From the UHGV virus genome UHGV-0138524: a DNA stretch of 20,478 nucleotides, one strand, 5' to 3'. The notes under the pieces were generated by a model. That model was not told the DNA's origin. It did not search any database and saw only the letters and a program-made list of their open reading frames with translations. This stretch comes from a virus. A program made the translations under genes and the position numbers. Of this stretch, positions 1 to 20,478 are shown piece after piece (position 1 is the stretch's first letter; every line of letters starts with the position of its first letter).

Positions 1-55
1 GTAGAGCCGGTCACACACACCGCTGCGCCTAATTTTGCTCCCTCTCCCAAACCAA
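1..55. repeat. 55-bp exact direct repeat, copy 1 (identical to 19892-19946); encodes the first residues of a tail-fibre variable segment on the minus strand
   Basis: Base-by-base comparison of 1-55 with 19892-19946; identity stops at 56 (g) versus 19947 (c), the first base of the outer half-site. Confidence 0.9.
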
Positions 56-662
56 GGTTTTTAAGAACGTCGCCGGCCAGTCCCGCGTCAACCATTTCTT
101 TCAGAGCATTAGCGATTAACGGGTACTGCTTGTGTGGATTGGCGGCCTCAACATGTTTTTTCATCAGGTTATCAGCATATCCTTTCACCTCGATAATCTT
201 GTCGTCGACATACTGGCGCGTTGCCAGCACGACTGCCGGGTCGATTTTCAGGGTGATTGCCGATGTGTTCGACACAATCAGAATCATGCGAATGGTCTGC
301 GTGCGACCGCTTCCCTCCTGCAGTTGTGGCTTGTAGGTCTCCGGACAGTTCGCCACGGCAATCAGAATACCATCATCGTCATAGAGACCAATCTCGCGGA
401 TCCAGAAACCACCTTCATTCTCGGGAATAATCTGTTCCGCGATAATCTGACTGGTATTGGCCGGGTCAACGGTCAGCAGGTTCAGCGGCGCGATGCGTTT
501 CTGGTTAATGAGCTTCGTCTGCGCCGGGTCAGGGGTCGGCAACGTACCATTCGCATCACCGACGGCCATCTGCGTCAGGTTGAGTTTGGTACCGAGTGCC
601 GCCGCGTTCGCCAGCCGCGCCGCGCCCTGATTGGTCAGAATGGCAAAATATTTTGCGGTCAT
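1..662 (-). CDS. H: Tail fibre protein, N-terminal constant domain (P2 gpH-like), reading through crossover site L into a variable segment; 3' end lies outside the window
   Basis: Hand translation of the minus strand from ATG at 662-660: MTAKYFAILTNQGAARLANA...GILIAVANCPETYKPQLQEGSGRTQTIRMILIVS...[23 protein letters not shown], resembling the P2 H N-terminus from memory; start overlaps the gpI stop (ATGA); not in the ORF track because it is open at the window edge. Confidence 0.8.
   Translation of the reverse strand, partial: MTAKYFAILTNQGAARLANAAALGTKLNLTQMAVGDANGTLPTPDPAQTKLINQKRIAPLNLLTVDPANTSQIIAEQIIPENEGGFWIREIGLYDDDGILIAVANCPETYKPQLQEGSGRTQTIRMILIVSNTSAITLKIDPAVVLATRQYVDDKIIEVKGYADNLMKKHVEAANPHKQYPLIANALKEMVDAGLAGDVLKNLGLGEGAKLGAAVCVTGS
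43..68. other. DNA-invertase crossover site L (gix/hix-like), inside the tail fibre gene at the constant/variable boundary
   Basis: TCTCCCAAACCAAGGTTTTTAAGAAC; core AAACC-AA-GGTTT matches the hix/gix consensus as recalled. Confidence 0.7.
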
Positions 663-3670: not shown

Positions 3671-3686
3671 ATTTATATAGTTCCTC

Positions 3687-3992
3687 TTATTTGCGCATTC
3701 TGATGTGATTTAACAGGTGTTTGATAACGACTGATAGCTCATCTTTACCGGCCTGCTCGACCATTTTTGCGGTGTAGCTTTCCACCTCGCGAGAGCTCAG
3801 GTCGTTATTTAAAGCCATTAAAGTCAGATTCTTTGCCCAATCGGCAAACGGGTCATTTTTCGATGAAAGGGGATTTTGCATGTACAAAAACCTCGAATTA
3901 TTTAACCAGCAGACGGTTGAAGTATTTGCGACGCTATGACCGGCTAACGCCTCGCGTAGCTCGTTGTTCAACCCCGCCAGCACTGAAAGCAA
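3687..3992 (-). CDS. Hypothetical 101-aa protein in the SOS operon (TTG start as called)
   Basis: ORF downstream of the DinI-like gene in the same orientation; no family recognised. Confidence 0.4.
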   Translation of the reverse strand: MLSVLAGLNNELREALAGHSVANTSTVCWLNNSRFLYMQNPLSSKNDPFADWAKNLTLMALNNDLSSREVESYTAKMVEQAGKDELSVVIKHLLNHIRMRK

Positions 3993-4014
3993 GTTTCAGC
4001 ACCGGCGGCGTTTG

Positions 4015-4248
4015 TTAATGCAGCCAGCTATCGTCCTCCCATACCTGCTGCATGATTTCCATTACTCGTTTTTTATCTTCGTCCAGTTTCAAACCGCTTA
4101 GTTCAACGCCATTAGCGGAGCCCTTGCGAATTCGGATAGCAGTCTTTGGGTAAATAGGTTGAAGATTGCGGTACAGTTCAGCCTCAAGTGCATCCAATGT
4201 TGCCTGACTAATTTTTTGCTCTTTATCCAACGTGATATTGATTCTCAT
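4015..4248 (-). CDS. DinI-family protein (DNA-damage-inducible protein I-like; Tum-like module)
   Basis: 77-aa MRINITLDKEQKISQATLDALEAELYRNLQ...KKRVMEIMQQVWEDDSWLH resembles E. coli DinI and the DinI-like part of 186 Tum. Confidence 0.65.
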   Translation of the reverse strand: MRINITLDKEQKISQATLDALEAELYRNLQPIYPKTAIRIRKGSANGVELSGLKLDEDKKRVMEIMQQVWEDDSWLH

Positions 4249-4251
4249 AAT

Positions 4252-4434
4252 CTAATCAGCCTTATAAAAATTATCATCTTCGGTTTCGTTATTTTCGCTG
4301 TTTGCTAGGTCTGCAATGAGAGTGAGCGCGAGCTTTAAGTCTGATGGCTTGCAGTTTGCAATCAGAGATACCTCGGCAATAAATTGCACACAAGCCCACT
4401 TTTGCTGCGTTCGGCTGAAATGTTCGCCAACCAT
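4252..4434 (-). CDS. Hypothetical 60-aa protein, first gene of the SOS operon
   Basis: ATG at 4434 preceded by GGGAGGG; a LexA box lies about 20 nt upstream; stop is 3 nt before the DinI-like ATG. Confidence 0.4.
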   Translation of the reverse strand: MVGEHFSRTQQKWACVQFIAEVSLIANCKPSDLKLALTLIADLANSENNETEDDNFYKAD

Positions 4435-4453
4435 GAAATCCCTCCCACAGGGT

Positions 4454-4473
4454 TACTGTATATTTATACAGTA
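4454..4473. promoter_or_regulatory. LexA (SOS) box overlapping the promoter of the minus-strand operon
   Basis: TACTGTATATTTATACAGTA, a near-perfect match to the palindromic CTGT-N8-ACAG consensus. Confidence 0.75.
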
Positions 4474-4547
4474 GCACGTATTGGCAAAAGATGGGAAGAA
4501 AAAAAACGAATAGAGCGATTGCTGTATGTGCATGATATGGATATGAA

Positions 4548-6770: not shown

Positions 6771-6771
6771 T

Positions 6772-6993
6772 TTATACCCCCCGATAGTGTTTGTTTTTTA
6801 GCTCTGCTATTTGCTGGCAGGTTATGCAAAAAGCCACGCCCGGAATCGCAATGCGGCGAGCTTCCGGGATTGGTGTGTCACATTCCTCGCAAAGAAAACG
6901 GGAAGGTGCAGCGATACGGGTGCGTGCGTTGCTGATGTGGCGTTCGCGGTCTTCCTGCTCGCGCAGTTGTGCTAAATCCATTGCGTCGGCCAT
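6772..6993 (-). CDS. TraR/DksA-family C4 zinc-finger protein
   Basis: 73 aa with CEECDTPIPEARRIAIPGVAFCITCQ; start overlaps the upstream stop (TAATG). Confidence 0.65.
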   Translation of the reverse strand: MADAMDLAQLREQEDRERHISNARTRIAAPSRFLCEECDTPIPEARRIAIPGVAFCITCQQIAELKNKHYRGV

Positions 6994-7220
6994 TAGTGCA
7001 GCTCCTGTGATTCATTCTCAAAGCGGGTTGCTTCACGGCGCAGCAGTTCGGCAGCTTCGGTGCCGCTCATACCCTCTCTGGTAATATGAATAGCCAGCGC
7101 CTCAAGGCGGATGGAAACAGCGAGCGCGCGGTCTTTACGCTCTTCTTTTTTTGCATCGGTCAGCAATACGGCCAGCGCATCGCTATCAGTGTTAAAACTA
7201 CGGATTTCGGTATTACGCAT
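6993..7220 (-). CDS. Hypothetical early-operon protein (75 aa)
   Basis: ORF translationally coupled to the downstream zinc-finger gene. Confidence 0.45.
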   Translation of the reverse strand: MRNTEIRSFNTDSDALAVLLTDAKKEERKDRALAVSIRLEALAIHITREGMSGTEAAELLRREATRFENESQELH

Positions 7221-7287
7221 AATTAACTCTCCTGCTTTCGGGCAATAAGATGCCCGGCGGGTTTACGCCATTAAATTTCTGTTTGGA

Positions 7288-7626
7288 TTAATTCGGCATG
7301 GTTAGCCGTTTGGGAAATAAGCTCACTACTGCACGAAAATGATTCATCGCTGTAATAAGCGCCTTTTTCTCGTCAGTAGTCAGCTCACTTAATTCGAGTT
7401 CATGACGAGCCGCCGGTATTTTTGCCAGAAAGAAAATAGCGGCCAGCGCCCGATTATTTTCTTCAAATTGTGGGTCACGTTTATCGCGCATATCATCGAC
7501 AAAACGTTCAACCTCTTTCCAGCTATCGCCCCAATATCTCGCGCGCAATTCGGCAACATGATTGAGACCGGCCAGACGTTCACCCGCTTTTAGCGGAACA
7601 GTCGCGGAAACAGCTTCGATAGCCAT
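7288..7626 (-). CDS. Hypothetical early-operon protein (112 aa)
   Basis: ORF in the early operon orientation; no family recognised. Confidence 0.45.
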   Translation of the reverse strand: MAIEAVSATVPLKAGERLAGLNHVAELRARYWGDSWKEVERFVDDMRDKRDPQFEENNRALAAIFFLAKIPAARHELELSELTTDEKKALITAMNHFRAVVSLFPKRLTMPN

Positions 7627-7790
7627 GATTCCCCCCGCTTTTGAGTAGAGAGGCCAGCCAGTAAATCAGCCTGCGAGTGGCTCGGGTGCCAGCGCTTGCC
7701 GTCCTTACCTGCGATCCAGCCGTGGCCGTAGTGCATGCCGGGGCTTTGCTTAACGAGCAGCGATGCGAATGACGGTTCACTTTTCAGCAT
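7590..7790 (-). CDS. Hypothetical small protein (about 66 aa)
   Basis: ATG at 7790 just downstream of the B stop; overlaps the next gene, so uncertain. Confidence 0.25.
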   Translation of the reverse strand: MLKSEPSFASLLVKQSPGMHYGHGWIAGKDGKRWHPSHSQADLLAGLSTQKRGESWLSKLFPRLFR

Positions 7791-7797
7791 ACGCACC

Positions 7798-8337
7798 TCA
7801 AATCAGACCAAACGATGCGCCAATACCGCTCATGGTATCGACCACGCTCGACATAGCTGGATTAGTCTGCAGACGTGCATGCAGCGCCAGAGCCGACAAT
7901 GACAACATGCGAATGCCGGAGTTAACGCTTTCAATCATGTTGTGCTTACGGGCAGTGGTCAGACGTTCATCAGATACCGCGCCGCTCGCCAGTTCGCCGA
8001 GTTCACGCATCGCGCGCATGACATAAGACTGCAATTTGTCTTTAGCCAACTCATTAACCGGCACGCATGGTAGGCAGTGAATCTGCGCTAAAAAACCATC
8101 AATGAGGGTTGAGTCTTCGGTCAGGTCAGTCAGCAGCCACAATTCAGGCGGCGTGAACTGGTGAGGCTGTTCCGGGTTGAGCTTGTTACGTAACGTTTGA
8201 ACGTTCATACCTGCACGCTCGGCCAGCTTCGCCATGTTGTGACGCTGTGCGAAAATGCGGCATGCTTCGTCATAGTGGGGATGTTTGGAAACCTGAAAAT
8301 CAAACATGGTTAAATTCCCTCTAACTTGCATAATCAA
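7798..8337 (-). CDS. B: Replication protein B (P2 gpB-like)
   Basis: 179 aa MIMQVRGNLTMFDFQVSKHPHYDEACRIFAQRHNMAKLAERAGMNVQTLRNKLNPEQPHQF... resembles P2 B. Confidence 0.75.
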   Translation of the reverse strand: MIMQVRGNLTMFDFQVSKHPHYDEACRIFAQRHNMAKLAERAGMNVQTLRNKLNPEQPHQFTPPELWLLTDLTEDSTLIDGFLAQIHCLPCVPVNELAKDKLQSYVMRAMRELGELASGAVSDERLTTARKHNMIESVNSGIRMLSLSALALHARLQTNPAMSSVVDTMSGIGASFGLI

Positions 8338-8339
8338 AT

Positions 8340-8711
8340 TCAGTTAAGAGCGGTGCGCTGGTCGATGTAGCGACAATCAATCGCTTGTTGAGTCAGCTTA
8401 TCGCGCCATGCTTTTACATTTACGAGGGTTCGGCTTCGTTTAGCAGCTTCCTCTTTGTTGGAAAAGTCTTTGGTCGGAGCTTTGAGAAGGACTCCCTCAT
8501 CGAGCCATTGCCAGACCAGACGCTCGCTAACACCGCGAGTAGCGGCGAAGTCTTTCACAGTCATCGTGTCTGACATAGCGGAGCGAATCATTGTCTGTAG
8601 AGCTGGCAGCATGGCGGTAACGATGGCATCAAACTGTGTTGGGTCTAGCAGCACAGTTTGATTTTGTGAGTTTTGCGAGTCGTGCGTCGAGATTGATTTT
8701 GCATCTGACAT
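8340..8711 (-). CDS. Cox/Apl-like helix-turn-helix regulator or excisionase, first gene of the early lytic operon
   Basis: 123 aa with an HTH-like stretch MTVKDFAATRGVSERLVWQWLDEGVL; faces the repressor gene; the true start may be an internal Met. Confidence 0.45.
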   Translation of the reverse strand: MSDAKSISTHDSQNSQNQTVLLDPTQFDAIVTAMLPALQTMIRSAMSDTMTVKDFAATRGVSERLVWQWLDEGVLLKAPTKDFSNKEEAAKRSRTLVNVKAWRDKLTQQAIDCRYIDQRTALN

Positions 8712-8823
8712 ATCGCATTATCTCCTGTTGTTTGAAATGTAGTGCAGTGGTGTGCATCTTGGTCGGTGAGCACCAATATAGATCGCTAAATTTTGGTTGT
8801 AAACAAAATTCTTGTTGGTGTCA

Positions 8824-9670
8824 TATGTCTAAAAATGATGTTAATGCGTCTGCCGCATTGGAACGTGTCCTTTCTGCATACGGCTTTAAGCAGCAAAAGG
8901 AACTAGCCGAAAGGCTTGGCATACATGCAAACAACGTGAGTAGCTGGCTTGCTAGAAACGTAATCCCTAGCAACGTTTTCGTTGAGTGTGCTCTTGATAC
9001 TGGAGCTGACCTGCGATGGCTAATTAATGGTGAGCTTGCAAATGCAAGATTTGAAGTGGTGAAAACTAAGCTTAAAGGTAAGCAACTCTATGATGAAATC
9101 ATGGCAAATGGAGGGAGGGCGGTTCTGCGTCGGATTCTCGATGCGTATGGTTTTACTCTGCAAAAAGAGCTTGGAGATTTATTAGGTATATCTTCCGGCA
9201 CTATAAGCACTTGGGTTAGACGCGATTTTTTCCCCGGTGACGTGGTTGTCACTTGCGCCCTTGATACTGGCGTATCGTTAGAATGGTTATCAACCGGAAA
9301 AGGCCAGATGCGTAACAGTAATGATGGTGAACCGGCAAATGCTTTAACGATTAGAAAGTGCCGCCTCGAGGCTGGCGAACTCAAAGATATCGGACGCTGG
9401 ACTCCTGATATATCTATGGTTCCATCAAATACTGATGATTTAGTGTTTATTGATGGTGTGAGCACATCTTGGCTTGTTGATAGTTCTAACTCGAAGATAG
9501 GAAATGGTCGCTGGCTTATTGGTATTGATGGCGCACTCGATGTTTTTGACGTAATCAGGTTGCCAGGCGGAAAGGTCAGGTTATCAAATAAGTCTGCTGA
9601 GTTTGAATGTAATATTTCAGATATCACACCATCAGGTGCGGTTATTTTTACTTTGGAAAAGCATGTTTAA
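8824..9670 (+). CDS. CI-type immunity repressor (186 CI-like) with a tandemly duplicated N-terminal DNA-binding domain
   Basis: From the internal ATG at 8824 (MSKNDV...); repeat 1 LERVLSAYGFKQQKELAERLGIHANNVSSWLARNVIPSNVFVECALDTGADLRWLINGE and repeat 2 LRRILDAYGFTLQKELGDLLGISSGTISTWVRRDFFPGDVVVTCALDTGVSLEWLSTGK; the track ORF starts at 8636, inside the upstream gene. Confidence 0.65.
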
Positions 9671-9679
9671 GGAGCAGTA

Positions 9680-10018
9680 ATGAAAAAGTTTATATTTGCG
9701 ATAGTCTGCATTGCACTTTCTTCCTCAGCCATAGCCGCTGAGAAGTTTAAAGAGATAGACGGCGCTGCATATGGTGACAAGTGGCCTCTAACCTTTGAAA
9801 AGGCAAAGGTATCATGTGTTAACCGTGCTTATGCTTTTGTGTATGACATCAAAACTGATGATAGATATCCTCTGAATGGCATGGCGGTAGATGCTGTTAA
9901 ATCAGGAAAGCTGGAGGGGTCTAACTTAGATGACGTATGGAAGGATGACCCTGAGTATGACGGCGTTAAAATTTCAATTTCACCGGTGATTGATGCCGCT
10001 ACAGCCCTTTGTAATTAA
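9680..10018 (+). CDS. Secreted or periplasmic small protein (DUF2511/YebY-like, assigned from memory); moron between the repressor and int
   Basis: N-terminal signal peptide MKKFIFAIVCIALSSSAIAAE; GGAG 7 nt upstream of the ATG. Confidence 0.55.
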   Translation: MKKFIFAIVCIALSSSAIAAEKFKEIDGAAYGDKWPLTFEKAKVSCVNRAYAFVYDIKTDDRYPLNGMAVDAVKSGKLEGSNLDDVWKDDPEYDGVKISISPVIDAATALCN

Positions 10019-10042
10019 TTTTCTTTTAGCCTCGGTATCGCA

Positions 10043-11092
10043 ATGACTGTAAGTAAACAAAAAAGTGGAAAATGGTTGTGTGAACTCTATCCAAATGGTC
10101 GAGAAGGGCGGCGTATACGTCGGCAGTTCAATACCAAAGGTGAGGCCGAGGCATTTGAAGCATTTACCAAAAGCGAGAGTGAAGATAAGCCGTGGCTCGG
10201 CAAGAAAGAAGACCGCCGACGCTTAAGCGAGATTATTCAGCTTTGGCACAATTTGCACGGTCAAGCGTTAGTCGCCAGTAAGTCGAGATTTGCAAAGCTT
10301 CAAATCGTATGTAATGGACTTGGCGACCCGATTGCATCTCGCCTTACCGCGAAAGACTGGGCTCATTATCGTGACCGTCGATTACGTGGTGAAATAGACA
10401 ATGGTTATCATAAAGACCCCTCGAAATGGATCGCCAAACCTATAACCGTCAATCGCGAACAACAATACCTAGAAGCAGTGTTTAATGAGCTCCGCCGGTT
10501 AGGGGAGTGGAGCCTACCCAATCCACTTGATGGGATCCGAGTATTCAAAGAAGCTGAGAAAGAAATGTCCTGGCTAACTTTGTCTCAGCTCCCGGAGCTG
10601 TTTCGAGCCTGCGAGCAATACGGCAAAGAAGACCTCACCATGATTGTTAAGGTGTGCCTTGCAACCGGCGCTCGATGGGGGGAAGCGGAGAGATTGACCC
10701 GACCTCAACTTTCTCCATATAAACTAACGTTCACCAAAACCAAAGGTAAGAAGAATCGCACAGTTCCTATTCCTAAATGGCTGTACGACGAGTTGTCCGT
10801 ACGTCAAGGCAGAATGTTTAAACCCTGCTATCAGGAGTTTAAAAAGATGCTCAAACTAACGAATATTGAATTGACGGAAGGGCAGAAGACGCACGTTTTG
10901 CGTCATACTTTTGGTGCGCATTTTATGATGAACGGAGGGAATATACTGGTGCTGCAGAAAATTCTCGGACATGCCAATATTCGAGAAACAATGAAGTATG
11001 CGCACTTTGCTCCTGACCACCTTGAACAAGCTGTAACCCTCAATCCGTTATCGCTGTATGTTGGCGACAATGTGGCGGCAGAGGTTGCATAA
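10043..11092 (+). CDS. int: Tyrosine integrase (P2/186 family)
   Basis: 349 aa; N-terminus ...GKWLCELYPNGREGRRIRRQFNTKGEAEAFE; catalytic-region signature VLRHTFGAHFMMNGGNILVLQKILGHANIRETMKYAH. Confidence 0.85.
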   Translation: MTVSKQKSGKWLCELYPNGREGRRIRRQFNTKGEAEAFEAFTKSESEDKPWLGKKEDRRRLSEIIQLWHNLHGQALVASKSRFAKLQIVCNGLGDPIASRLTAKDWAHYRDRRLRGEIDNGYHKDPSKWIAKPITVNREQQYLEAVFNELRRLGEWSLPNPLDGIRVFKEAEKEMSWLTLSQLPELFRACEQYGKEDLTMIVKVCLATGARWGEAERLTRPQLSPYKLTFTKTKGKKNRTVPIPKWLYDELSVRQGRMFKPCYQEFKKMLKLTNIELTEGQKTHVLRHTFGAHFMMNGGNILVLQKILGHANIRETMKYAHFAPDHLEQAVTLNPLSLYVGDNVAAEVA

Positions 11093-11227
11093 CACTGCAA
11101 TTCACTGCATTAAAAATTACTTTAACTAGTTGTTTTATATGGTAAGTGTTTGTTCGCTGTGGGGTGTTAATAGGAGCGTCTTAACTGATAACGTATTCGC
11201 GCTACATCCAAAGCGTGTTATGAAACA

Positions 11228-11257
11228 AGGGGTTAGCGAATTGCTAACCCCTTTTTT
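11228..11257 (+). terminator. Rho-independent terminator downstream of int
   Basis: Stem AGGGGTTAGC / GCTAACCCCT with loop GAATT, followed by T6. Confidence 0.6.
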
Positions 11258-11310
11258 ATTGGTGGTGGCGGCAAATTGGCGGCAGAGGTTGGAGCGATGG
11301 CGACAGATAT

Positions 11311-11331
11311 AAAAAAACCTGCCGAAGCAGG
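11311..11331 (-). terminator. Rho-independent terminator downstream of ogr
   Basis: On the minus strand: CCTGC-TTCG-GCAGG followed by T7, just after the ogr stop. Confidence 0.55.
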
Positions 11332-11332
11332 T

Positions 11333-11551
11333 TCAAAGCCAAAGTTGCTGTTGTTGGTTTCTGATGGGGTGTGGCGGAGCAGGATCAACAGTACCCGGTT
11401 TCACAATGAATCTTGATAGCGTCTCAAAAGTGATAAATGTACATCCGCAATTTATGTTCTGGCACTGGTGATAACGTTCTTTTGTTTCGGTGCTAAGGTA
11501 CCGGCTAGTGCGAGCATGTGCGGCGTTTTGGCATAACGGGCAGTGCATCAT
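11333..11551 (-). CDS. ogr: Ogr/Delta-family zinc-finger late-gene activator
   Basis: 72 aa MMHCPLCQNAAHARTSRYLSTETKERYHQCQNINCGCTFITFETLSRFIVKPG... closely resembles P2 Ogr; GGGGA upstream of this Met; the track ORF starts 15 codons further upstream. Confidence 0.85.
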   Translation of the reverse strand: MMHCPLCQNAAHARTSRYLSTETKERYHQCQNINCGCTFITFETLSRFIVKPGTVDPAPPHPIRNQQQQLWL

Positions 11552-11626
11552 AATTATTTCCCCTGCTGGCGTATCTGAGGGAATAATAAACTTCAAAATT
11601 GCATTTGCAAGTTTTGGTTTGCTTTT

Positions 11627-12796
11627 TCACTCCTCATTTTCTTCTGAGCTGTACTCCACATCGGAGAGTTTAACCTCAAGCTCTAAGCCCGTCGTGAAAC
11701 CGTTATTATTGAGGTTGTGGGTCACCTTGCTGATTAACCATGCCTGCTCGTCTATGACGCGCTTAAAGCCTGACACGCGTACAGGCGTCTCAGGAAATAA
11801 ATCCGCTCGCCCTAGCGCCAGTGTGATTGAAAACTCCGCAACACCTCGCTGCAGTTTATCCCACTTAGCCTGAGCGGCGCGCATCGCCTGTGCCTTTGAG
11901 GCATAGACTGTCGTCAGCGCCAGCACGTTATCGGCTTCACCGGCCATGTACTCACCCTCACGTGCTTCCTGTTCTTTTTTGACCTTTGTCTTTTTGCTGA
12001 CCGGCTTTGCTTTTGGGTGTTCCAGTGCGCGCAGGTGCTTCTCTTTTGGCTTGCGTTTCAGCGTTACTTTCTGCTTTTGTGGCTTCGGGTCTTTGGTGTG
12101 CAACCATTTAGCAGTGACGCCGGTATAAGCCCCACGGTCGGCAATGGCAAACTGATGACGGTCACCATCACTGCGGGTCAGCGTCATTTGCGGGACGGGT
12201 TTGCCGCTGGCCGTCATCGCACTACCGGCTTTCAGAAACAACAGTTTCCCTGCCTTCACCGATACCGTTGCCCCGTTGCGGTCAGCCAGTCGACTCAAAA
12301 ATACCGCGTCGGATTCCTGCGACTGGTCGATATGCGGTACCGGGATTTTTTTCAGCGATTCCGCAATGCTGGCCGTCAGTTTGTTGCGCTTTGCGATGGT
12401 ACTGACCAGTTCGCCGATGGTGGTGTCGTGCCATGACTCTTCACGCCTGGAATTTAGCGTGCCGCGAAAGTCCGCGCTGCGCGCCCGGATGGTCAGGGTA
12501 TCAGGAGCCCCCCGGTGCTCAATCTCATCGACCGTAAAATCCCCCTTATTCAGCAGCGCCGAACCCTGCCAGCCAAGCCACAACGTCAGCACTGCCCCGC
12601 GCAGGGGTAACTCGACTTTCCCATCGGTGTCATCGAGCTCAATGTCGAGCTGGTCAGCTTCAAAGCCCCTATTGTCCGTCATGGTGAGAGAAATCAGCCG
12701 GTCGCTGAAGTTGCTGGTAATGTCCTGACTGTTCAGCGTCAGCATAAAAGCCGGTGCAAGGCTGGCACCGGCGTCAATTGCCATCCCCGTTATCAT
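11627..12796 (-). CDS. D: Tail protein D (P2 gpD-like late control/tail protein)
   Basis: 389-aa ORF in conserved P2 order (ogr-D-U-T); sequence resembles gpD. Confidence 0.8.
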   Translation of the reverse strand: MITGMAIDAGASLAPAFMLTLNSQDITSNFSDRLISLTMTDNRGFEADQLDIELDDTDGKVELPLRGAVLTLWLGWQGSALLNKGDFTVDEIEHRGAPDTLTIRARSADFRGTLNSRREESWHDTTIGELVSTIAKRNKLTASIAESLKKIPVPHIDQSQESDAVFLSRLADRNGATVSVKAGKLLFLKAGSAMTASGKPVPQMTLTRSDGDRHQFAIADRGAYTGVTAKWLHTKDPKPQKQKVTLKRKPKEKHLRALEHPKAKPVSKKTKVKKEQEAREGEYMAGEADNVLALTTVYASKAQAMRAAQAKWDKLQRGVAEFSITLALGRADLFPETPVRVSGFKRVIDEQAWLISKVTHNLNNNGFTTGLELEVKLSDVEYSSEENEE

Positions 12797-13278
12797 GCAG
12801 TGAAACCTCCGGGCATACCCTGCAGTTTATCTGTCAAATTACCGGCAGAGCCGAGAAGCTCACTGGCCTGTTTATTCAGGTCACCAAACATCTCTGTCAG
12901 CGATTCATCAACCCGTTTTAGCGAAAGCGTGAAATCAATCTTTCTGGCCGCACCATCACTGAAAAACTCGGTGCGTGTAGTCGATACTTTATCGACGATA
13001 TACATCCCGAGGATATTTCCGGTTCCCTCTATCAACGGCCACGCTCTGCCTTCATTGGCCATCACCTCTACAGCCTTAAGTGAGATCCAACCGCCAGTGA
13101 TAGCGGGGTATAGCGTACCAGCAAGCTGTATAGAGGTTTCCCCCTCGCCAAGAAACTGATAGGCAGGTGGTTTACCCACCCGGTCATTGGACACCCAGCG
13201 ATAATCTTTCGAATGCTGCATCGACTGGTAAGGCAGGGTGCGAAGTTCAAACACAAACATTCCGAGAGCAAGCATCAT
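12793..13278 (-). CDS. U: Tail protein U (P2 gpU-like)
   Basis: 161-aa ORF overlapping the D start; order and sequence resemble gpU. Confidence 0.8.
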   Translation of the reverse strand: MMLALGMFVFELRTLPYQSMQHSKDYRWVSNDRVGKPPAYQFLGEGETSIQLAGTLYPAITGGWISLKAVEVMANEGRAWPLIEGTGNILGMYIVDKVSTTRTEFFSDGAARKIDFTLSLKRVDESLTEMFGDLNKQASELLGSAGNLTDKLQGMPGGFTA

Positions 13279-13291
13279 CGTTTAATCCCCC

Positions 13292-15734
13292 TCAATAGTC
13301 GTGGGTCATGTTGGCACGCTGGCGGGCGCGTTTATCGCGCTCAATCTGTTCGAGCGTGTCGCGTAGTTGTCTGTCAAGCTGATGCCCCGGCGCAACACCT
13401 CCCGGCAGATTGATGTTGTATTCGCTTTTGCTCTGGTCAATGTAAGAGCGCCCCGCCGGTGCGGTAACTGGCTGATAAGCCTGATAGCCGCCATATGTGC
13501 TGGTTGCCGGGATGTAGGAATTACCCTGTGTGGCGGCATTGGTTTTGGCGGCGGTCTGGTCGAGGCTGTCCGACTCTTTGTTGATGATGCCGAGCTTTTC
13601 GAGAAGCCAGTCGACACCGCTGCGCAGCTTGTTAAAAACATTGAGCGGAGCCATCAAGGCAGAGGCCAGTGCCTGACCAAATATGACGCCGACACTTTTG
13701 CAGCTATCAAGCGTTTCCTGCGTGGCCTTAACCGGTGCTATCAGGTCTTTAAACCACTGCCAGACGCCGCGCAGTTTCTCGCCGAGACCATCAAAAATGG
13801 GAGCCAGTGGAGCGAACATTTCCCCGACTGGGGCAAAGGCACTCATGATGCCCTCAATCACTCCCGAGAAAAATGCGCTGATGGGCTCCCAATATTTACG
13901 GATGAGTAGCGCCCCCGCCACAATCGCCGCACCGACGGCCACTATCGGCCAGGTAATCGCACCGAGCGCTGTCGCAATGGCACTACCGACGACAGTAAAG
14001 ACCGTACCCAGCACGCCAGCAGCGGCGATAATGGCATTAATCCCCATGACAACCGGCCACGCAACGAGACCAATGCCGCCGATGATACCAATCAGCGCCA
14101 GCGCACCACCGGCGATGATGCCGATAGTTTCCGCTAACTCCTTGTTGTCTTTGATCCAGTCATCAAGCTTTAGCACATACCGTGTTGCTGTCTGAGTTAG
14201 CTGACGCAATGAGCTATCTTGCTGGTCGTAGAGGTCGGTACCGACGGCCTCATAAGCGGATTGAAACTCTTTGAAGTCGCCACCTAAGTTATCCTGCATA
14301 ATTTTAACAAGCTCTGCGGTTTTTCCGTCTGAGGCTTTCAGGGTGGAGGTTAGCTGGTCAAGTTTGCCGGTTGAGGCGGCAGTCATGAGCACCGCCGCCG
14401 CCGAACTGGCTTCCTCACCGAATATCGTTTTCATGTATTCGGCTTGTTGACCGGTGCCGAGATTGTTACGCTCAAAACTGGCCTGCATTTCCTTGAGGAT
14501 GGTAAAAATCGGGCGCGTGTTGCCTTTACTGTCGGAAGTTTTGACCCCCAGCTCCTTAAGCGCATCCCACGCTTTACCGGTCGGAGCCTGCAGGCGGCTT
14601 AAAACCGCACGGCTCCCGGTGCCGGCCATCGAGCCGGTGATTTTGGCGTCATGCAGGGCGCCCACCATTGCGGCAGTTTCTTCAATGCTGACACCGGCAT
14701 TTTTCGCCACCGGCGCGGCGTATGTCAGCGCATCGCTCAGCCCGTCGAAATCGGCAGCAGTTTTATTCATCACCGTCGACAGAACGTCGCCAATGTGCGC
14801 CACCTTGTCATTGGAAAGCTGAAACGCAGAGCGCATCCCCATCAGTAATGCGGCGTTTTCTTCCATCGTGCGACGGTTGGCAAGCGCCATATTGAGGGTG
14901 ACCGGTGTCGTCGCCTGAATGGCTGCCGCATCGCCGCCCCCTTTGGCGATAATAATCTGCGCACTGGCTGCATCATCAGCAGAAGCGGCTGTATTGTCAC
15001 CGAGCTGGCGTGCCTGTTTGCGTAGCGCCTCCATTTCTGGCGACTGCTTATCGACCCCGAGCACGGCCTGCAGCTCGGAATTTTTCTGCGCAAAGTCATA
15101 ACCGGGCATCAGTAATTTCACCCCGGCCATCGTTCCCGCTGTCGCGATACCTACCCCGGCAGCCCCTGCAGCGGCCATGTTACCGGCAAGCTCCTTGCCT
15201 GATTTATATCGCTCTTTCACCCGGCCTAATTTCGCCTGCTGCGCACTGACGCGCGAGTGCCTCACGCTGGCGGTTAAGCTGCGCCGTCGTTTCGCTGATG
15301 GAGGTTTTGAGCCGACGCTCATCGGCAGAAAGGGTGCGGGTATTAATACCGGCCTGCATCAGTTCGGAGCGCTGGCGCTGTACAGACGTTCTCAGACTGT
15401 TGTACTTCGTCTGTAGCTCAGAGGCAGCACGCTTTGCCGCTTCGAGTGCCTGCGCCTGCGCGCGGGTCGGACTGGTGGAGTTTTTAAACTGCACGGCCAG
15501 TTCACCGGCTTCGCGTTTCGCTTTCTCAAGCGCCTGACTGGTCACGGCCAGTTGCGCACTGGCCTTACGAAAGCCGTCGATTTTTGACGCCTGACCATTC
15601 AGGTCACGCAGCCCTTTTTGTGTTTCGCGAATATCGCCCGACAGGGTTTTACTCGCGGTCTGGATGGATTTAAGCGGTCGGGTCGCCTGGTCGACCGCTT
15701 TCAGCAAAACCTCAAGTCTCAGGTTATTACTCAT
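13292..15734 (-). CDS. T: Tail tape measure protein (P2 gpT-like), frame interrupted near 15250-15256 (two overlapping ORFs, 15734->15204 and 15322->13292); possible pseudogene
   Basis: N-terminal ORF ends ...NRQREALARQCAAGEIRPGERAI*; the second frame continues ...RVSAQQAKLGRVKERYKSGKELAGN...; hydrophobic Gly/Ala-rich segments typical of tape measure proteins. Confidence 0.75.
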
Positions 15735-16214
15735 TGTGGTGTCCGCTACGCTGCAGCGCCTTTTCGCGCCATGTGATGAGCTCGGTCAGGCTCAGGGAAT
15801 AGAGCTCTGATAGCGGCCAGTGGAATATCACCGCGATATCCGCCATCAGGTCATCGGTCGACAGGTCGGGCGGGAAATCTACTCCGCCGAAGCCGGTGAC
15901 AAAAAACCAATCACCTTAGCGGCCAGCGACAGCATATCGGGCAGGTTCATTGCGGTAAGCTCCTGCGCCGTAAGCGCGGGGTAGGTCATGCGTGGCAATA
16001 CCTTAATCAGCGCATCGACTTCGGACTGCGCCACCGCTGCCAGACTGACACCGCGCAGGGTACCGGCGTTCGGCTCAATCAGTGTGACTTTATCAATCGT
16101 CTGACCGGCGCGCTTAATCGGCTTGTCGAGGGTCACGACGTTCGGGTTTACGGTGTCAATTTCATTGCCAGCCATATCAACAAATTCAGCGGTTTTACGT
16201 GGTGCTTTTGCCAT
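15727..16214 (-). CDS. E': E+E' fusion produced by programmed -1 ribosomal frameshift
   Basis: Slippery TTTTTTG on the minus strand (plus 15900-15906); the -1 frame continues FFVTGFGGVDFPPDLSTDDLMADIAVIFHWPLSELYSLSLTELITWREKALQRSGHHNE* and its stop overlaps the T start (ATGAGTAA). Confidence 0.65.
15879..16214 (-). CDS. E: Tail assembly chaperone E (P2 gpE-like)
   Basis: 111-aa ORF ending ...DMLSLAAKVIGFLSPASAE; position between FII and T. Confidence 0.75.
   Translation of the reverse strand: MAKAPRKTAEFVDMAGNEIDTVNPNVVTLDKPIKRAGQTIDKVTLIEPNAGTLRGVSLAAVAQSEVDALIKVLPRMTYPALTAQELTAMNLPDMLSLAAKVIGFLSPASAE
15900..15906 (-). promoter_or_regulatory. Slippery heptamer for the E/E' programmed -1 frameshift
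   Basis: T6G run on the coding strand near the 3' end of E, as in P2 and lambda G/GT. Confidence 0.6.
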
Positions 16215-16277
16215 GATGTTTTTCTCTGCTCTGAATGGGGATTAATAACCGGCCAGCAGTGCTGACCGGTCAGGGAA

Positions 16278-16796
16278 TTACAGCCCGATTGCGCGGCGGT
16301 GCTGTTCCAGACGGTCGACGCCGTTCACCTTCTCAACCATGTTGACGGTATCGATTTCGATGACGTCGCTACCATCAATCGTGAGGCGGTAATAGGTGCA
16401 TACGGTCGACAGTTTGGTCGAGGTGTTTTCACCCTGCTTATTCTCGCCGCCGTCGATTTCTTTATGACGGCCACGCATGACCACCTCGACCGCCACGATT
16501 TCGCCAGTGTCGTCACGTTGGTAAGAGCCAGCAAAACGCAACGGCACAGCGTCAGCACCCGGCGCGGCGTACTGCGCCCACAGCGCCACATCAGGCAGGC
16601 CACCGACAGACCATTCGACGGTGAGCGCATCATCGTCGAGACCAAGGTCAATCGCCGCCGCGCCATTCATGCCGCCGCCGCGATAGTTTTCGAGCTTGCG
16701 GGTCAGCTTCGGCAGCGTCACGGATTCAACAACGCCCATGTAGCTAAGGCCGTCATTGAACATGTTCAGATATTTAAGTTTGCGGGGTAGTGCCAT
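16278..16796 (-). CDS. FII: Tail tube protein (P2 gpFII-like)
   Basis: 172-aa ORF directly downstream of the sheath gene; sequence resembles FII. Confidence 0.8.
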   Translation of the reverse strand: MALPRKLKYLNMFNDGLSYMGVVESVTLPKLTRKLENYRGGGMNGAAAIDLGLDDDALTVEWSVGGLPDVALWAQYAAPGADAVPLRFAGSYQRDDTGEIVAVEVVMRGRHKEIDGGENKQGENTSTKLSTVCTYYRLTIDGSDVIEIDTVNMVEKVNGVDRLEQHRRAIGL

Positions 16797-16811
16797 GTTG
16801 TTTCAGGCTCC

Positions 16812-17990
16812 TTAGCTGTTGACCGATTCGGCCAGATTTACCAGATATTTATCGGTGATACGCTGGCGCAGGGTCAGGCTTTCCAGTGGTGGAACCGGTG
16901 TATAGTCGTAGTCGATATACAGTTTCCCGGCCTTGAGGGTTTCCTTATCGTTCGATTCCTCGTCAAACCAGCATTCACCGTCCACGATGTAGCCGTTTGA
17001 TTTCAGCTCGCGGAATTTGGCGTTAATGCCGTCGACAATGTCACGGATAAGTGATGCGGTGATGGGCTTATCGACCGCCCACATGTGCGCCTCGGCCATC
17101 GTGTCGGCCAGCACCTGCGCGGTGCGGGTGTAGTTCTCAAACAGGAAAAGCGGGTCATCAGAGCAGGTGCGGTTACCCCAAAAGCGGAAGCCATCCTTAC
17201 GCACCAGTGTTGTGAGCCCGGCCTCGTTGAGCAGATCAGCATCGGTGCCGGATGCCTGCAAATCCCAAAACACTGACGCACTGATGCCGGTAACACCCTG
17301 CACGCCGATGTTAGACAGGGTTTTGTGCCAGCCGACGGTCTGGTCGATATAGGCACGCAGGCCGAGTGCGCGCGCAGTTGCGTATGCCGGTGCGGTGGCG
17401 TTTGTGGTGGTATCCCATGCAAGGAAATCAGGCCAGATGACCATCAGCTCGCGCTGGCTGAAATTCTCGCGATAGGCCATCGCCTCGGAAATGGTTTTAC
17501 AACCCCATGCGCTGATATAGCCAAAGGCGCGCAGGCTGATACAGACCGAAGCAAGTGCGACTGCGACCTCTTTGGTATCGAGACCCGGCACGCCGAGAAT
17601 GCGCGGCTTAACGCCGGTGACTGCTTCGGCAGTCAACAGCGCCTTGATGCCGGTATATTTACCGCTCTCATCCGTGCCGCCGATGATATTGGAAATGGTC
17701 TGCGCTTCGGCGTCTTCTCCGGTACCTTCGGCAACACGCACGACAACTGTGACAGGTTTTGACTGGTCGGCGATGGCCTGCAGGGAGGCAGACAACGTGC
17801 CTTTTTTACCGGCTTTTGCAATGGCGCTCTGCACATTGGTAATCAATACCGGTTCGTTGAGGGGGAATGTCTCGGCATCCGCATCGCTGGCCGTGCAGAC
17901 CATGCCGACAATTGCGGTTGCAACAGTGGAAATGACGCGGGTGCCGTCGTTAATCTCAAGCACCTGCACGCCGTGGTGAAAATCACTCAT
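16812..17990 (-). CDS. FI: Tail sheath protein (P2 gpFI-like)
   Basis: MSDFHHGVQVLEINDGTRVISTVATAIVGMVCTASDADAETFPLNEPVLITNVQ... closely resembles P2 FI; start taken at the Met at 17990 (GGAG upstream) rather than the track start at 18017. Confidence 0.85.
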   Translation of the reverse strand: MSDFHHGVQVLEINDGTRVISTVATAIVGMVCTASDADAETFPLNEPVLITNVQSAIAKAGKKGTLSASLQAIADQSKPVTVVVRVAEGTGEDAEAQTISNIIGGTDESGKYTGIKALLTAEAVTGVKPRILGVPGLDTKEVAVALASVCISLRAFGYISAWGCKTISEAMAYRENFSQRELMVIWPDFLAWDTTTNATAPAYATARALGLRAYIDQTVGWHKTLSNIGVQGVTGISASVFWDLQASGTDADLLNEAGLTTLVRKDGFRFWGNRTCSDDPLFLFENYTRTAQVLADTMAEAHMWAVDKPITASLIRDIVDGINAKFRELKSNGYIVDGECWFDEESNDKETLKAGKLYIDYDYTPVPPLESLTLRQRITDKYLVNLAESVNS

Positions 17991-18088
17991 CCGGTTAACT
18001 CCGTGGTTAGTGGGCAAGTGTTATTGTCCTGGCTGGTCTGTTGAGGGGCTATTTGTCAGTGTTGGGTGATGTCTGACACATTGAGACA

Positions 18089-18331
18089 TCAGCAACGGAT
18101 GCGGGAAATTTTTTGTATAGCGTTGAGATACCCGAGGCGATCCAGTTTCCAGACCACAAGCGTATCGCCCTCTGACAAGGTTCTGAGTAACCTCTTTAGC
18201 CCCGGCCAGTCTGATGTTTTGCCGCTGATTTTATCTTCGAAAATCAGCTCGCATCCTGCGCACTCCAGTTCATTTCGCTGTAATGCGGTGTTCTGGTCAT
18301 TTGTTGATACACGTACATAACCGATAAACAT
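18089..18331 (-). pseudogene. Serine DNA invertase (Gin/Hin/Pin family), 3'-truncated remnant
   Basis: MFIGYVRVSTNDQNTALQRNELECAGCELIFEDKISGKTSDWPGLKRLLRTLSEGDTLVVWKLDRLG then unrelated residues and a stop; homologous to the first ~70 codons of the intact invertase at 20066. Confidence 0.75.
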
Positions 18332-18385
18332 GAGAAATAACCCGGTAAAAAGTCGGGATCATGCCAGCTGAACGGAATATCTGCA

Positions 18386-18411
18386 TTTTCTAAAAGGTTG
18401 GTTTAGGAGAT
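18386..18411. other. Crossover site M (degenerate outer half-site) bordering the invertible segment
   Basis: TTTTCTAAAAGGTTGGTTTAGGAGAT; the inner half GGTTTAGGAGA matches sites L and R, the outer half reads AAAGG instead of AAACC. Confidence 0.55.
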
Positions 18412-18765
18412 GCGGCAAAAAAAAATGTTGGCACTGGTTCCGGACAGATTCCGGACATGTCTTCATTTGGTAATCAGCGAGCCGATTCGGGGTATCAATA
18501 CCTGCCAGGCGGGTTAATTCTTCAATGGGCAATAGCCATAACGAGAACATCCCCAGAAACAGTATCATTCCCGATTGCGTTTCCAACCAGGGCGCTATGT
18601 GTTGTTGCAACAGACCAGAGTGTTGGGGGTACAGGTCAAGGTTTTGCGTTAACCGCCCAGGATTTTACGAGAACTAATTTCCAGCTACGCGCTTATCAGA
18701 CAGGAACCAACGCTGAATCATCCATCGGCGCTGGCGGGTTTAACTATTTTGCTGTGGGGTATTAA
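18394..18765 (+). CDS. Tail fibre C-terminal variable cassette (start-less Sv segment, silent in this orientation)
   Basis: Frame open from 18394: KVGLGDAAKKNVGTGSGQIPDMSSFGNQ...FNYFAVGY, paralleling the [19 protein letters not shown] junction of H; followed directly by a Tfa gene. Confidence 0.6.
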   Translation, partial: KVGLGDAAKKNVGTGSGQIPDMSSFGNQRADSGYQYLPGGLILQWAIAITRTSPETVSFPIAFPTRALCVVATDQSVGGTGQGFALTAQDFTRTNFQLRAYQTGTNAESSIGAGGFNYFAVGY

Positions 18766-18768
18766 TAA

Positions 18769-19200
18769 ATGGCTTATTTTTATTCAGCATTAAATAACGC
18801 TTTCTACCCTGATGAGCTCAGAGATGTTTATGAAGCGAGTAGAAACTGGCCTGACGATCTCATAGCCGTCTCAGATGAGACATTCACTGAATATTCGGGG
18901 ATGCCACCAGAGGGTAAAACTCGTGGAGCTACTGAGGATGGAATGCCGGCATGGGTAGACATTCCACCTTTAAGCCATGAGGAGGAAATCGCAGCAGCTG
19001 AAGCTGAAAAACAGTATCGTATCGATCAGGCTAATGAGTATATAAACAGCAAGCAGTGGCCGGGTAAAGCTGCGCTGGGGCGACTTACAGACGACGAGAA
19101 GGCCCAGTATAACGAGTGGCTGGATTATCTCGATGCGCTGGAATCTGTGGACATATCCAGCGCACCAGATATCAACTGGCCTGAGTCGCCGGAGGAGTAG
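18769..19200 (+). CDS. Tail fibre assembly protein (Tfa; Mu U / P2 G family)
   Basis: 143 aa ending ...[28 protein letters not shown], the characteristic Tfa C-terminus. Confidence 0.75.
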
Positions 19201-19603
19201 GCCAGTCCGGGTCTGCTGTATCAACTCGCATCAGCAGCACCCGGTATTTTTTCCATTCGGCTAATGAAACAGTTTCTTCTTCCGTCGCGATCCCCGCATC
19301 AACGGCGTCCTGCCGCCATTCTATTTCAGAGTCAGCTGAAGCACGCAGTCGCGATTTTTCGGCTTCTGCCAACGCAATAATTTCCTCTTCAGTTGGTTCG
19401 GGAATATCTATCCATTCAGGTAAACCATCAGAATTAGGAGCGCGTAATTTTCCGTTAGGTGATTCTCCGGCAAACTCAACGAATACGGAATAGTCTACTT
19501 CAACGGCATCGTCAGGCCAGCTACCTGCATTTTCATAAATACTTTTTAGCTCATCAGCGTAGAACGCATTTTCTTTTGCAGAATAAAACATATTAATCAC
19601 CAT
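19172..19603 (-). CDS. Tail fibre assembly protein, second (convergent) copy
   Basis: 143 aa ending ...[28 protein letters not shown]; 3' ends of the two Tfa genes overlap by 29 bp. Confidence 0.75.
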
Positions 19604-19946
19604 CCAATCGCGAAAACTCTAAAGCCACCGTAGCCAGCACATGTAATCTGAGTTCTTGTTACCGTCGTATAGTATGATCGGCCCACCGCTAAGCTATATG
19701 CGGCTGTAGAACTCAAATCAACTGCCCCAGTTGATACATCACTAAATAACGGAATCATGCACTCATTTGGGAATGCAATAGGGAAATTCGCAGTTACTGG
19801 TGTCACATAATCAGTTGTAGTAGCACCAAACCACTGCAATATGATCACCCGTTCTTTCCCGGCGACCATTGCCGGGATAGTCATATAGCCTGTAGAGCCG
19901 GTCACACACACCGCTGCGCCTAATTTTGCTCCCTCTCCCAAACCAA
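19597..19946 (-). CDS. Tail fibre C-terminal variable cassette (start-less S'v segment beginning at crossover site R)
   Basis: [30 protein letters not shown]...[10 protein letters not shown]; its first 17 residues are encoded by the 55-bp repeat also present at 1-55. Confidence 0.65.
19892..19946. repeat. 55-bp exact direct repeat, copy 2 (identical to 1-55)
   Basis: See copy 1. Confidence 0.9.
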
Positions 19947-19958
19947 CGTTTTCCGGAA
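19933..19958. other. DNA-invertase crossover site R (gix/hix-like)
   Basis: CTCTCCCAAACCAACGTTTTCCGGAA; core AAACC-AA-CGTTT; lies 107 bp upstream of the intact invertase. Confidence 0.65.
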
Positions 19959-20065
19959 GACATGGTTACTTCTGACGGTGCGGTACCAGACCTGCAGTAC
20001 AGCCAGAAATGACGATGCTCGATACAATGCGAGGGACTATGACATCTAAATAAAAGGGGATTTTT

Positions 20066-20478
20066 ATGCTGATCGGCTATGTAAGGGTGTCAACAAATGA
20101 CCAGAACACTGCGCTGCAAAGAAATGCGCTGGTAAGCGCAGGATGTGAACAAATATTTGAAGACAAAATAAGCGGCACTAAAGCGGAAAGGCCGGGGCTT
20201 AAGCGTTTATTACGGACCTTATCGGAGGGTGATACGCTGGTTGTCTGGAAGCTGGATAGGCTTGGCAGAAGTATGAAACACCTTATCACGCTTATAGAGG
20301 AGTTGCGGGAAAAAGGTGTTAATTTCCGTAGTCTGACAGACAGTATTGACACATCAACACCCATGGGGCGTTTCTTTTTTCACGTCATGGGGGCTTTAGC
20401 AGAAATGGAACGTGAATTAATTGTTGAGAGAACACTGGCCGGACTGGCAGCTGCACGCGAACAGGGACGCATTGGCGG
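20066..20478 (+). CDS. Serine DNA invertase (Gin/Hin/Pin/Cin family), 3' end outside the window
   Basis: MLIGYVRVSTNDQNTALQRNALVSAGCEQIFEDKISGTKAERPGLKRLLRTLSEGDTLVVWKLDRLGRSMKHLITLIEELREKGVNFRSLTDSIDT..., with the catalytic serine context YVRVST; AAAGGGGA upstream. Confidence 0.85.
   Translation, partial: MLIGYVRVSTNDQNTALQRNALVSAGCEQIFEDKISGTKAERPGLKRLLRTLSEGDTLVVWKLDRLGRSMKHLITLIEELREKGVNFRSLTDSIDTSTPMGRFFFHVMGALAEMERELIVERTLAGLAAAREQGRIG

Follow-up and report, generated by a model that had tools for sequence, protein, structure and literature searches.

In the C segment of phage P1 (Cin) and the G segment of Mu (Gin), a constant N-terminal part of the tail fibre is combined with two C-termini, each of which has its own assembly gene, and the invertase lies just outside one recombination site with the enhancer in its 5' end. 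The P segment of the E. coli K-12 element e14 has pix sites of the type TTCTCCCAAACC AA, with a central AA, and its fibre C-termini and Tfa genes are arranged as convergent pairs. This segment was found to invert experimentally (PMC4272514, PMC12529663), and it was inverted by PinQ, PinR and PinE alike, which established action in trans within the Pin family and inversion between prophages in E. coli (PMC12529663). Fin is also cited there as acting on the H segment of Hin. Phase variation is likewise documented for P2-like prophages whose invertase lies between fibre cassettes and sheath gene (PMC4272514), and the described P2-like fibre loci include the three-repeat shufflon of EPEC E2348/69 and Fels-2 Fin.

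The DNA analysed here (the window, 20,478 nucleotides) is a complete SPAdes contig, NODE_1_length_20478. It most likely represents a 19,891-bp cycle plus a 532-bp spur at 19947-20478, because bases 1-55 recur at 19892-19946 and this repeat has the size of one k-mer. A defective 186/P2-like prophage of E. coli, recovered in the assembly as a circle of 19,891 bp, hosts the fibre locus, which contains the following features.

42..67, plus strand: site L, 26 bp, CTCTCCCAAACC AA GGTTTTTAAGAA, with the inner half on the S'v side and the outer half within Hc
56..662, minus strand: Hc, constant N-terminal part of the tail-fibre gene H (Phage_tail_fib PF12571, E 1e-63)
16812..17990, minus strand: tail sheath gene FI, directly downstream of the invertase stub
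18089..18331, minus strand: invertase stub inv1rem, codons 1-67 homologous to Pin/Cin/Gin, then 13 unrelated codons and a stop
18242..18313, minus strand: Cin-enhancer-homologous stretch of the stub (coding nt 19-90), by homology to the P1 annotation
18386..18411, minus strand: site M, 26 bp, minus-strand ATCTCCTAAACC AA CCTTTTAGAAAA, with the inner half on the Sv3 side and the outer half adjoining the stub
18412..18768, plus strand: Sv3, silent alternative fibre C-terminus (Gp53-like_C), start-less
18769..19200, plus strand: Tfa, tail-fibre assembly protein of Sv3 (Caudo_TAP, E 2e-38)
19172..19603, minus strand: Tfa', tail-fibre assembly protein of S'v (Caudo_TAP, E 1e-33)
19597..19932, minus strand: S'v, fibre C-terminus (Gp53-like_C), start-less, fused to Hc via L on the cycle

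The real order of the locus was shown to be Hc - site L - (S'v, Tfa' / Tfa, Sv3) - site M - invertase stub - sheath gene. With its two sites, the locus belongs to the e14 P / P1 C type of invertible tail-fibre segments. It shares the site type, the central AA and the convergent gene pairs with e14, and in e14 of strain TW10722 the protein accessions of Tfa and the C-terminus are the same as those of a prophage of the stub lineage. However, e14 has an intact pinE, whereas the segment here adjoins only 67 invertase codons, and the host element is a 186/P2-like myovirus remnant rather than e14. The layout also follows that of P1 C and Mu G, but the cassettes are short Gp53-like_C domains of about 115 aa and the invertase is defective. 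Compared with the P2-like fibre loci, the lineage studied differs by a fixed invertase pseudogene. The original prediction had described the cassette as Mu G-segment-like; this held for its invertible fibre-cassette type, but the sites are nearer to those of e14 P and P1 C (cix/pix/hix type, central AA), while the central dinucleotide of Mu gix is TC/GA and its half-site differs.

The two C-terminal cassettes converge, Sv3-Tfa on the plus strand and Tfa'-S'v on the minus strand, and each C-terminus has its own Caudo_TAP gene. Their prediction as start-less cassettes with separate Tfa genes was confirmed by the open reading frames and by the Gp53-like_C and Caudo_TAP matches. In the present state, Hc and S'v form a 318-aa open frame, and a fibre gene of 318 aa is called in the relatives L027 and L029; the inverted state joins Hc and Sv3 in frame over 324 aa. 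The exact Tfa' protein was indexed in 353 blocks of the assembly collection, and an exact-protein look-up of the 114-aa S'v ORF gave no match.

The sequence TCTCCYAAACCAA occurred three times in the window (0.03 expected by chance), at 43-55 (plus), 18398-18410 (minus) and 19934-19946 (plus). Site M is inverted relative to site L, both have the central AA, and their half-sites match those of relatives that invert. The Hc-side outer half of L was identical in the loci of the lineage that have an Hc-side site (L020-L023, L025, L027, and L029). The 26-bp coordinates predicted for M and for a further site R, 18386-18411 and 19933-19958, were exact. The outer half of M had been taken as mutated, with AAAGG for AAACC. 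The letters were right, but CCTTTTAGAAAA is identical to the e14 pinE-proximal site and constant across the prophage lineage, and AAAGG is therefore native e14 sequence. We rejected decay of M, because its outer half is identical to that of a working e14 site.

The apparent third site and second invertase involve four further features of the contig.

1..55: 55-nt repeat, copy of 19892-19946; one k-mer, the vertex that joins the two ends of the 19,891-bp cycle and gives rise to the spur
19933..19958, plus strand: "site R", inner half and central AA as in L (same k-mer), then the foreign outer half CGTTTTCCGGAA
19947..20478, plus strand: spur, 532 bp, comprising the outer half of R, 107 bp of spacer and codons 1-137 of inv2
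20066..20478, plus strand: inv2 invertase, partial, 137 codons and then the contig end

All 55 bases of the end repeat are identical and the mismatch comes at the very next base, a pattern characteristic of a de Bruijn cycle with k=55 and an attached spur. A sister contig of the same element has 19,946 bp (= 19,891 + 55) and is a collinear circular permutation, in which Hc is fused to S'v and the spur is absent. The S'v-Hc join was also present in two further assemblies of the element. Site L thus connects Hc with S'v on the cycle as well as in the three other assemblies, and a single orientation of the segment was found in 4/4 assemblies. L and R are not independent, because their inner halves are one 55-mer of the cycle-plus-spur contig. 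The prediction of three sites with a common inner half was right in the three copies of TCTCCYAAACCAA and wrong in counting L and R separately. Judged from the sequence, the element appears to have only two independent crossover sites, fewer than the three or more of a shufflon-type locus such as p15B Min or the P2-like locus of EPEC; the apparent third site is a product of assembly, unlike the genuine shufflon sites of EPEC E2348/69.

The best DNA matches of the spur were 89% identical and belonged to a different P2-like prophage lineage. Its CGTTTTCCGGAA outer half, spacer and inv2 matched L035, L036, and L038 at 88-89%, which are P2-like prophages of other gene order where the spur-like sequence forms the canonical invertase end of a fibre segment. 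An outer half identical to that of R adjoins inv2-like genes in L035 (E. coli PCP06171) and L038 (an IMG/VR contig). No record combining stub, segment and inv2 was found among 5,426 complete E. coli genomes, phage records and plasmids, and the exact S'v-R-inv2 joint was not found in the E. coli complete genomes, GTDB representatives, IMG/VR or JGI metagenomes. A search for the R-inv2 joint in GTDB representatives, JGI metagenomes and IMG/VR gave one 21-mer match only, in L038, with a different cassette. An exact-protein look-up of the partial inv2 gave no match, and the protein search returned only cluster representatives at ≤94% identity, some of them from contigs of about 88-100 kb. DNA matches of inv2 on non-mobilizable plasmids of ~95 kb, which may be P1-like, covered the coding region only and not the flank.

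An intact second invertase had been described on the far side of the segment. Neither its intactness nor its place was borne out: inv2 is incomplete, with 137 codons to the contig end and no DNA-binding domain within the window, it is joined via the 55-mer only, and both the spur flank and the gene best match another prophage lineage. In the element itself, the far side is occupied by the constant fibre N-terminus Hc and not by an invertase. The second invertase is most likely an assembly product and not part of the locus.

The invertase beside FI had been predicted to be truncated after about 70 codons, in agreement with the 67 homologous codons found. The stub matched only positions 2-76 of the 145-position Resolvase model, without an HTH, and it lacks most of the catalytic domain and the whole DNA-binding domain. 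A complete serine invertase (catalytic domain and C-terminal HTH) was not found beside the segment within the window. The element's own invertase is thus non-functional. The identical 80-aa stub ORF was indexed in 276 blocks of the assembly collection, with the sheath gene adjacent in 8/8 of those listed, and RefSeq annotates it as a partial recombinase pseudogene. The sheath gene has 392 aa in all relatives. The 67-codon stub is fixed in this prophage lineage, which is common in E. coli.

The stub is ~77% identical to pinE at the nucleotide level over nt 1-201. The P1 record annotates a recombinational enhancer at cin nt 19-90, where the identity of the stub to cin was 81%, compared with 64% over nt 91-201, and we assign this stretch a putative enhancer role. 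Its centre lies ~120 bp from the centre of M, the value for this type of system being ~100 bp, with two Fis sites in cis. In a simple Fis-motif scan, the proximal site fell at a position conserved across invertases, and the distal candidate of the stub was below the cut-off. Selection on the stub was also considered from diversity (pi 0.002, against 0.075 at third codon positions of the sheath gene). This was discarded as evidence, because the loci had been picked by exact identity of the 80-aa ORF and the sheath gene has two haplotype classes.

The segment of this element forms a 1,545-bp module, which was compared among the relatives. It was >99% identical in at least 5 element backgrounds and occurred twice in one genome (L006 and L007). 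L003-L012 carry the identical module with an intact 188-aa invertase in both orientations. Opposite orientations were found in one prophage type, L003/L004 versus L008-L010 and L012, where the inner halves exchange outer halves exactly at the central AA. The related prophages L001, L005, and L007 retain the module without any invertase. In the stub lineage, another cassette pair was present in both orientations, L023/L026 versus L037 of EC1, with ~96% identity. This inversion could predate the truncation or reflect a replacement of cassettes, which vary widely among the members of the lineage.

Taken together, the locus is probably an orphan invertible segment that could be switched only in trans, with R and inv2 being an assembly spur. 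In the present state, H would be expressed as Hc plus S'v together with Tfa', and recombination between L and M at their central AA would yield the in-frame Hc-Sv3 fusion with Tfa downstream. Site M and the stretch with homology to the Fis-dependent enhancer persist in the stub and its flank, and the segment looks like a competent substrate. Because the element's own invertase is dead, any switching would have to occur in trans: only a Pin/Cin-family invertase from another element of the same cell would flip the segment, which would otherwise be frozen. The suggestion that switching depends on a second invertase or on one from another prophage therefore survives in its need for supply in trans, but not in a second invertase in cis. 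As for the contig, the assembler would have circled the cycle and then exited at the shared 55-mer onto the edge of a fibre segment from another prophage. The invertase-proximal edge of this second prophage would carry the same or a similar S'v cassette beside inv2.

That the contig is instead collinear with a real molecule, with three sites, two invertases and an intact inv2 opposite the stub, is highly improbable. The contig was assembled in this way, and the stub and inv2 form a 205-nt inverted repeat around the segment, 76% complementary. However, the join runs through a 55-nt stretch that repeats the start of the contig exactly, the circle is closed and spur-free in sister assemblies, the arrangement was present in 0/5,426 complete E. 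coli genomes, and inv2 is incomplete in the window; an R beside inv2 would, moreover, leave S'v without a constant fibre part. The spur might also be a real hybrid junction, in which a Pin-family invertase joined L to the invertase-proximal site of a second prophage and a subpopulation has S'v-R-inv2. We consider this unlikely. The sequences part immediately behind the central AA, the point of strand exchange by serine invertases, and the joint was absent from every other collection searched, but such divergence is equally expected of two ordinary loci with a common cassette, and outer halves differ from element to element in every case. Enhancer-dependent invertases strongly disfavour distant or intermolecular sites, and a minority product would be unlikely to assemble at ~5x depth.

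A different question is whether the orphan segment still inverts. It may be a frozen relic with no inversion since the loss of its invertase, in which case the orientation differences in the lineage would be older events or cassette replacements by homologous recombination. We consider this possible, if somewhat doubtful. The single orientation in all four assemblies is consistent with it, as are the ~4% divergence of the oppositely oriented relatives, the wide cassette variation across the lineage and the module retained without invertase in L001, L005, and L007. On the other hand, the sites are intact, with M identical to a working e14 site, the enhancer-homologous region is retained, and E. 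coli prophages are known from experiment to invert one another's segments in trans (PMC12529663). These observations argue for a segment that could still be switched in trans.

Host-range switching by the element is doubtful, because head, lysis and most baseplate genes are missing and the tape-measure gene carries a frameshift. A 334-aa cargo ORF gave no match with PADLOC or Pfam.

Above all, these results call for caution with assemblies: a contig that starts with an internally repeated k-mer is a cycle plus a spur, and gene neighbourhoods across such a join, such as "two invertases flanking one segment", are no sign that the genes are linked. For the biology of these prophages, the locus adds one more invertible fibre segment without its own invertase yet with intact sites, which fits the recent work on prophage invertases acting on each other's segments. 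The interest would be greater only if the retained stub proved to be a selected cis element. We suggest, tentatively, that the stub may be kept in this widespread lineage for its cis-acting parts, namely site M and the Fis enhancer in its first 90 nt. If this were true, orphan segments would be switchable by any Pin-family invertase in the cell, a network of fibre switches in several prophages could be driven by one invertase, and common sites could let the promiscuous 1,545-bp module pass from one element to another.

The segment at 18386-19958 holds two convergent gene sets. Open reading frames and domain matches (Gp53-like_C and Caudo_TAP) confirmed the predicted arrangement of two fibre C-termini, each with its own Tfa gene, and the predicted positions of sites M and R were exact to the base.

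Features of the fibre locus and its element (26-bp sites are written as inner half on the cassette side, central pair, outer half on the flank side)
18412-18768, plus strand: Sv3, alternative fibre C-terminus (Gp53-like_C)
18769-19200, plus strand: Tfa, assembly gene of Sv3 (Caudo_TAP)
19172-19603, minus strand: Tfa', assembly gene of S'v (Caudo_TAP)
19597-19932, minus strand: S'v, alternative fibre C-terminus (Gp53-like_C)
42-67: site L, CTCTCCCAAACC AA GGTTTTTAAGAA
18386-18411, minus strand: site M, ATCTCCTAAACC AA CCTTTTAGAAAA
19933-19958: site R, CTCTCCCAAACC AA CGTTTTCCGGAA
18089-18331, minus strand: invertase stub, ORF adjoining the sheath gene FI
17990 to 16812, minus strand: FI, after site M and the stub on the cycle
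662 to 56, minus strand: Hc, constant fibre part (Phage_tail_fib, E 1e-63), joined via L to S'v
3343-3360, minus strand: 186-type cos, identical to the 186-type cohesive-end sequence GGCGTGGCGGGGAAAGCA

The window has three copies of TCTCCYAAACCAA where 0.03 would be expected by chance; they lie at 43-55 (+), 18398-18410 (-) and 19934-19946 (+). Hc reads on in frame into either C-terminus, giving 318 aa with S'v and 324 aa with Sv3. The locus had been likened to the Mu G segment; since its sites carry the central AA of the pix/cix/hix class, whereas the Mu gix class has TC/GA, "e14 P / P1 C-like" is the better description. The silent Sv3 cassette opens with a run of nine A (18416-18426, GCGGCAAAAAAAAATG), in frame here, where slippage might occur. 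Three comparison loci (L009, L010, L012) have the same first 59 nt of Sv3, run included, and no length variation was seen.

The window is the entire ENA contig ERZ1755337 NODE_1_length_20478_cov_5.37. Its bases 1-55 equal 19892-19946 exactly and diverge at the base that follows; SPAdes uses 55 as its largest default k. A sister contig of the same accession series, ERZ1754902 NODE_1, measures 19,946 bp (19,891 + 55) and is circularly permuted but otherwise collinear with the window; there S'v continues through L into Hc, without the terminal 532 bp. S'v is also joined to Hc in ERZ1755106 and ERZ27234110. The terminal repeat and the sister assemblies therefore indicate that the contig goes once round a 19,891-bp cycle and then leaves it through the shared k-mer into a 532-bp spur (19947-20478). 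L and R have a common inner half because they are the same DNA, and the branch point lies directly after the central AA because outer halves differ between elements. Thus the second invertase on the far side and the three sites with a common inner half were most likely products of the assembly path. The original prediction read the sequence accurately to the base except in calling that invertase intact: its ORF, from 20066, has 137 codons before the window ends, and these include no DNA-binding domain.

The 1,545-bp module at 18400-19944 recurred at 99.1-99.9% identity in at least five element backgrounds (L001, L003-L012 and the window): P2-like prophages with a 188-aa invertase, P2-like prophages without one, this lineage, another myovirus (beside an integrase), and a T6SS-adjacent element with a Hin-like 193-aa invertase. 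One assembly, GCA_052874175.1, holds it twice (L006, L007). These comparisons point to horizontal exchange of the whole module at conserved sites. Moreover, the e14 of E. coli TW10722 (L039) and the stub-lineage 186-like prophage of TW10598 (L002) encode the same cassette proteins (WP_001089533.1, WP_001355803.1), so e14 and this 186/P2-like prophage have fibre cassettes in common.

The outer half, 107-bp spacer and gene of the spur showed 88-89% nucleotide identity to L035 (E. coli PCP06171, with an identical outer half CGTTTTCCGGAA), L036 (strain Ec73552) and L038 (an IMG/VR contig). In all three, P2-like prophages with a gene order unlike that of the window, this sequence is the usual invertase-proximal edge of a fibre segment. 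Given these matches and the presence of the same module in at least five element backgrounds, the simplest source would be a co-resident prophage carrying the same cassette beside its own invertase, although the exact S'v-R-invertase joint was not found in any collection searched. That the spur instead marks a real hybrid junction, formed by recombination between prophages, is improbable.

The invertase next to FI was indeed truncated near codon 70, as predicted: 67 codons homologous to Pin/Cin/Gin are followed by 13 unrelated codons and a stop. Of the 145 positions of the Resolvase model the stub matches only 2-76, and it cannot catalyze recombination. An identical 80-aa stub lies beside the sheath gene in all complete relatives examined, which are integrated between a yfiB-like OmpA-family gene and rplS; its ORF is indexed in 276 blocks of the assembly collection, and RefSeq annotates it as a partial recombinase pseudogene. 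Truncation is therefore fixed in a common E. coli prophage lineage and is not confined to this contig.

The outer half of M had been regarded as mutated, but it is identical to the pinE-proximal site of e14 and constant across the stub lineage. The e14 P segment inverts experimentally (PMC4272514, PMC12529663). In the P2-like prophage type with the intact 188-aa invertase, an identical module occurs in both orientations, and between L003/L004 and L008, L009, L010 and L012 the inner halves exchange outer halves exactly at the central AA. The Cin enhancer is annotated at cin nt 19-90 in the P1 record; the stub still has nt 1-201, with 81% identity to cin over nt 19-90. The enhancer-homologous stretch sits some 120 bp from M, a spacing similar to the roughly 100 bp reported for Hin (PMC3798978). 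Both orientations in relatives, the e14 identity of M's outer half and the retained enhancer-homologous stretch say that the sites are sound.

These invertases are known to act on each other's segments: the e14 P segment is inverted by PinQ, PinR and PinE alike (PMC12529663), and that paper also cites action of Fin on the Hin H segment and inversion of Mu G by PinE. Within the stub lineage, one cassette pair lies beside Hc in L023 and in TW10598, and beside the stub in EC1 and, among the matches listed, in further genomes. These opposite orientations are compatible with inversion after truncation; given a divergence of about 4% between the prophages compared, they might equally stem from older events or from replacement of cassettes. 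That difference, together with the single orientation of this element's segment in four of four assemblies, would fit a frozen relic that no longer inverts, a less likely but serious rival. Because the sites are sound and trans action is known, we rate as most likely that the segment is a competent substrate, which would switch only through an invertase supplied in trans. Of the predicted routes, supply by another prophage remains plausible, and a second invertase in cis is not supported.

Window 1-19946 is a 19,891-bp head-less 186-like element in its circular (attP) form. At least three ENA assemblies have it as NODE_1, and one of these, ERZ1755106, shows the integrated form beside a yfiB-like gene. 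Read on the minus strand, the cycle continues from FI through tube FII, E, tape-measure T, U, D and ogr to the attP junction (core near 11174-11186), then int, CI, replication gene A and cos; a DinI-family gene is also retained. The match to GGCGTGGCGGGGAAAGCA indicates that cos was kept in the deleted element. Next come a C-terminal piece of the portal gene, fused to a baseplate-J fragment, and gene I. The junctions of the element lie at 1598/1633 and about 11174-11228. It has no terminase, scaffold, capsid, lysis, R, S, V or W genes. Compared with the 814-aa T of relatives, T here (13292-15734, minus strand) has lost 2 nt near 15250 and reads as two ORFs of 176 and 676 aa; the same split was called in the sister contig L027. 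What is seen here may result from excision and escape replication, or else from helper-dependent (satellite-like) packaging. A 334-aa ORF (2118-3122, plus strand) occupies the place of the P2 accessory-gene hotspot, between the portal remnant and cos. It has no match in Pfam or PADLOC, and 1,682 blocks of the assembly collection are indexed for exactly this protein.

The cassettes, sites and dead invertase are real but ordinary, and invertible fibre loci in P2-like prophages, true three-repeat shufflons included, have already been described (PMC4272514). The unusual look of the locus came from the second invertase and the three sites, both most likely from the assembly path. Since head and lysis genes and most baseplate genes are missing and T is broken, inversion would not change host range in a virion of this element alone. 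The conserved stub may have been kept for its enhancer and site, which switching driven in trans would need.
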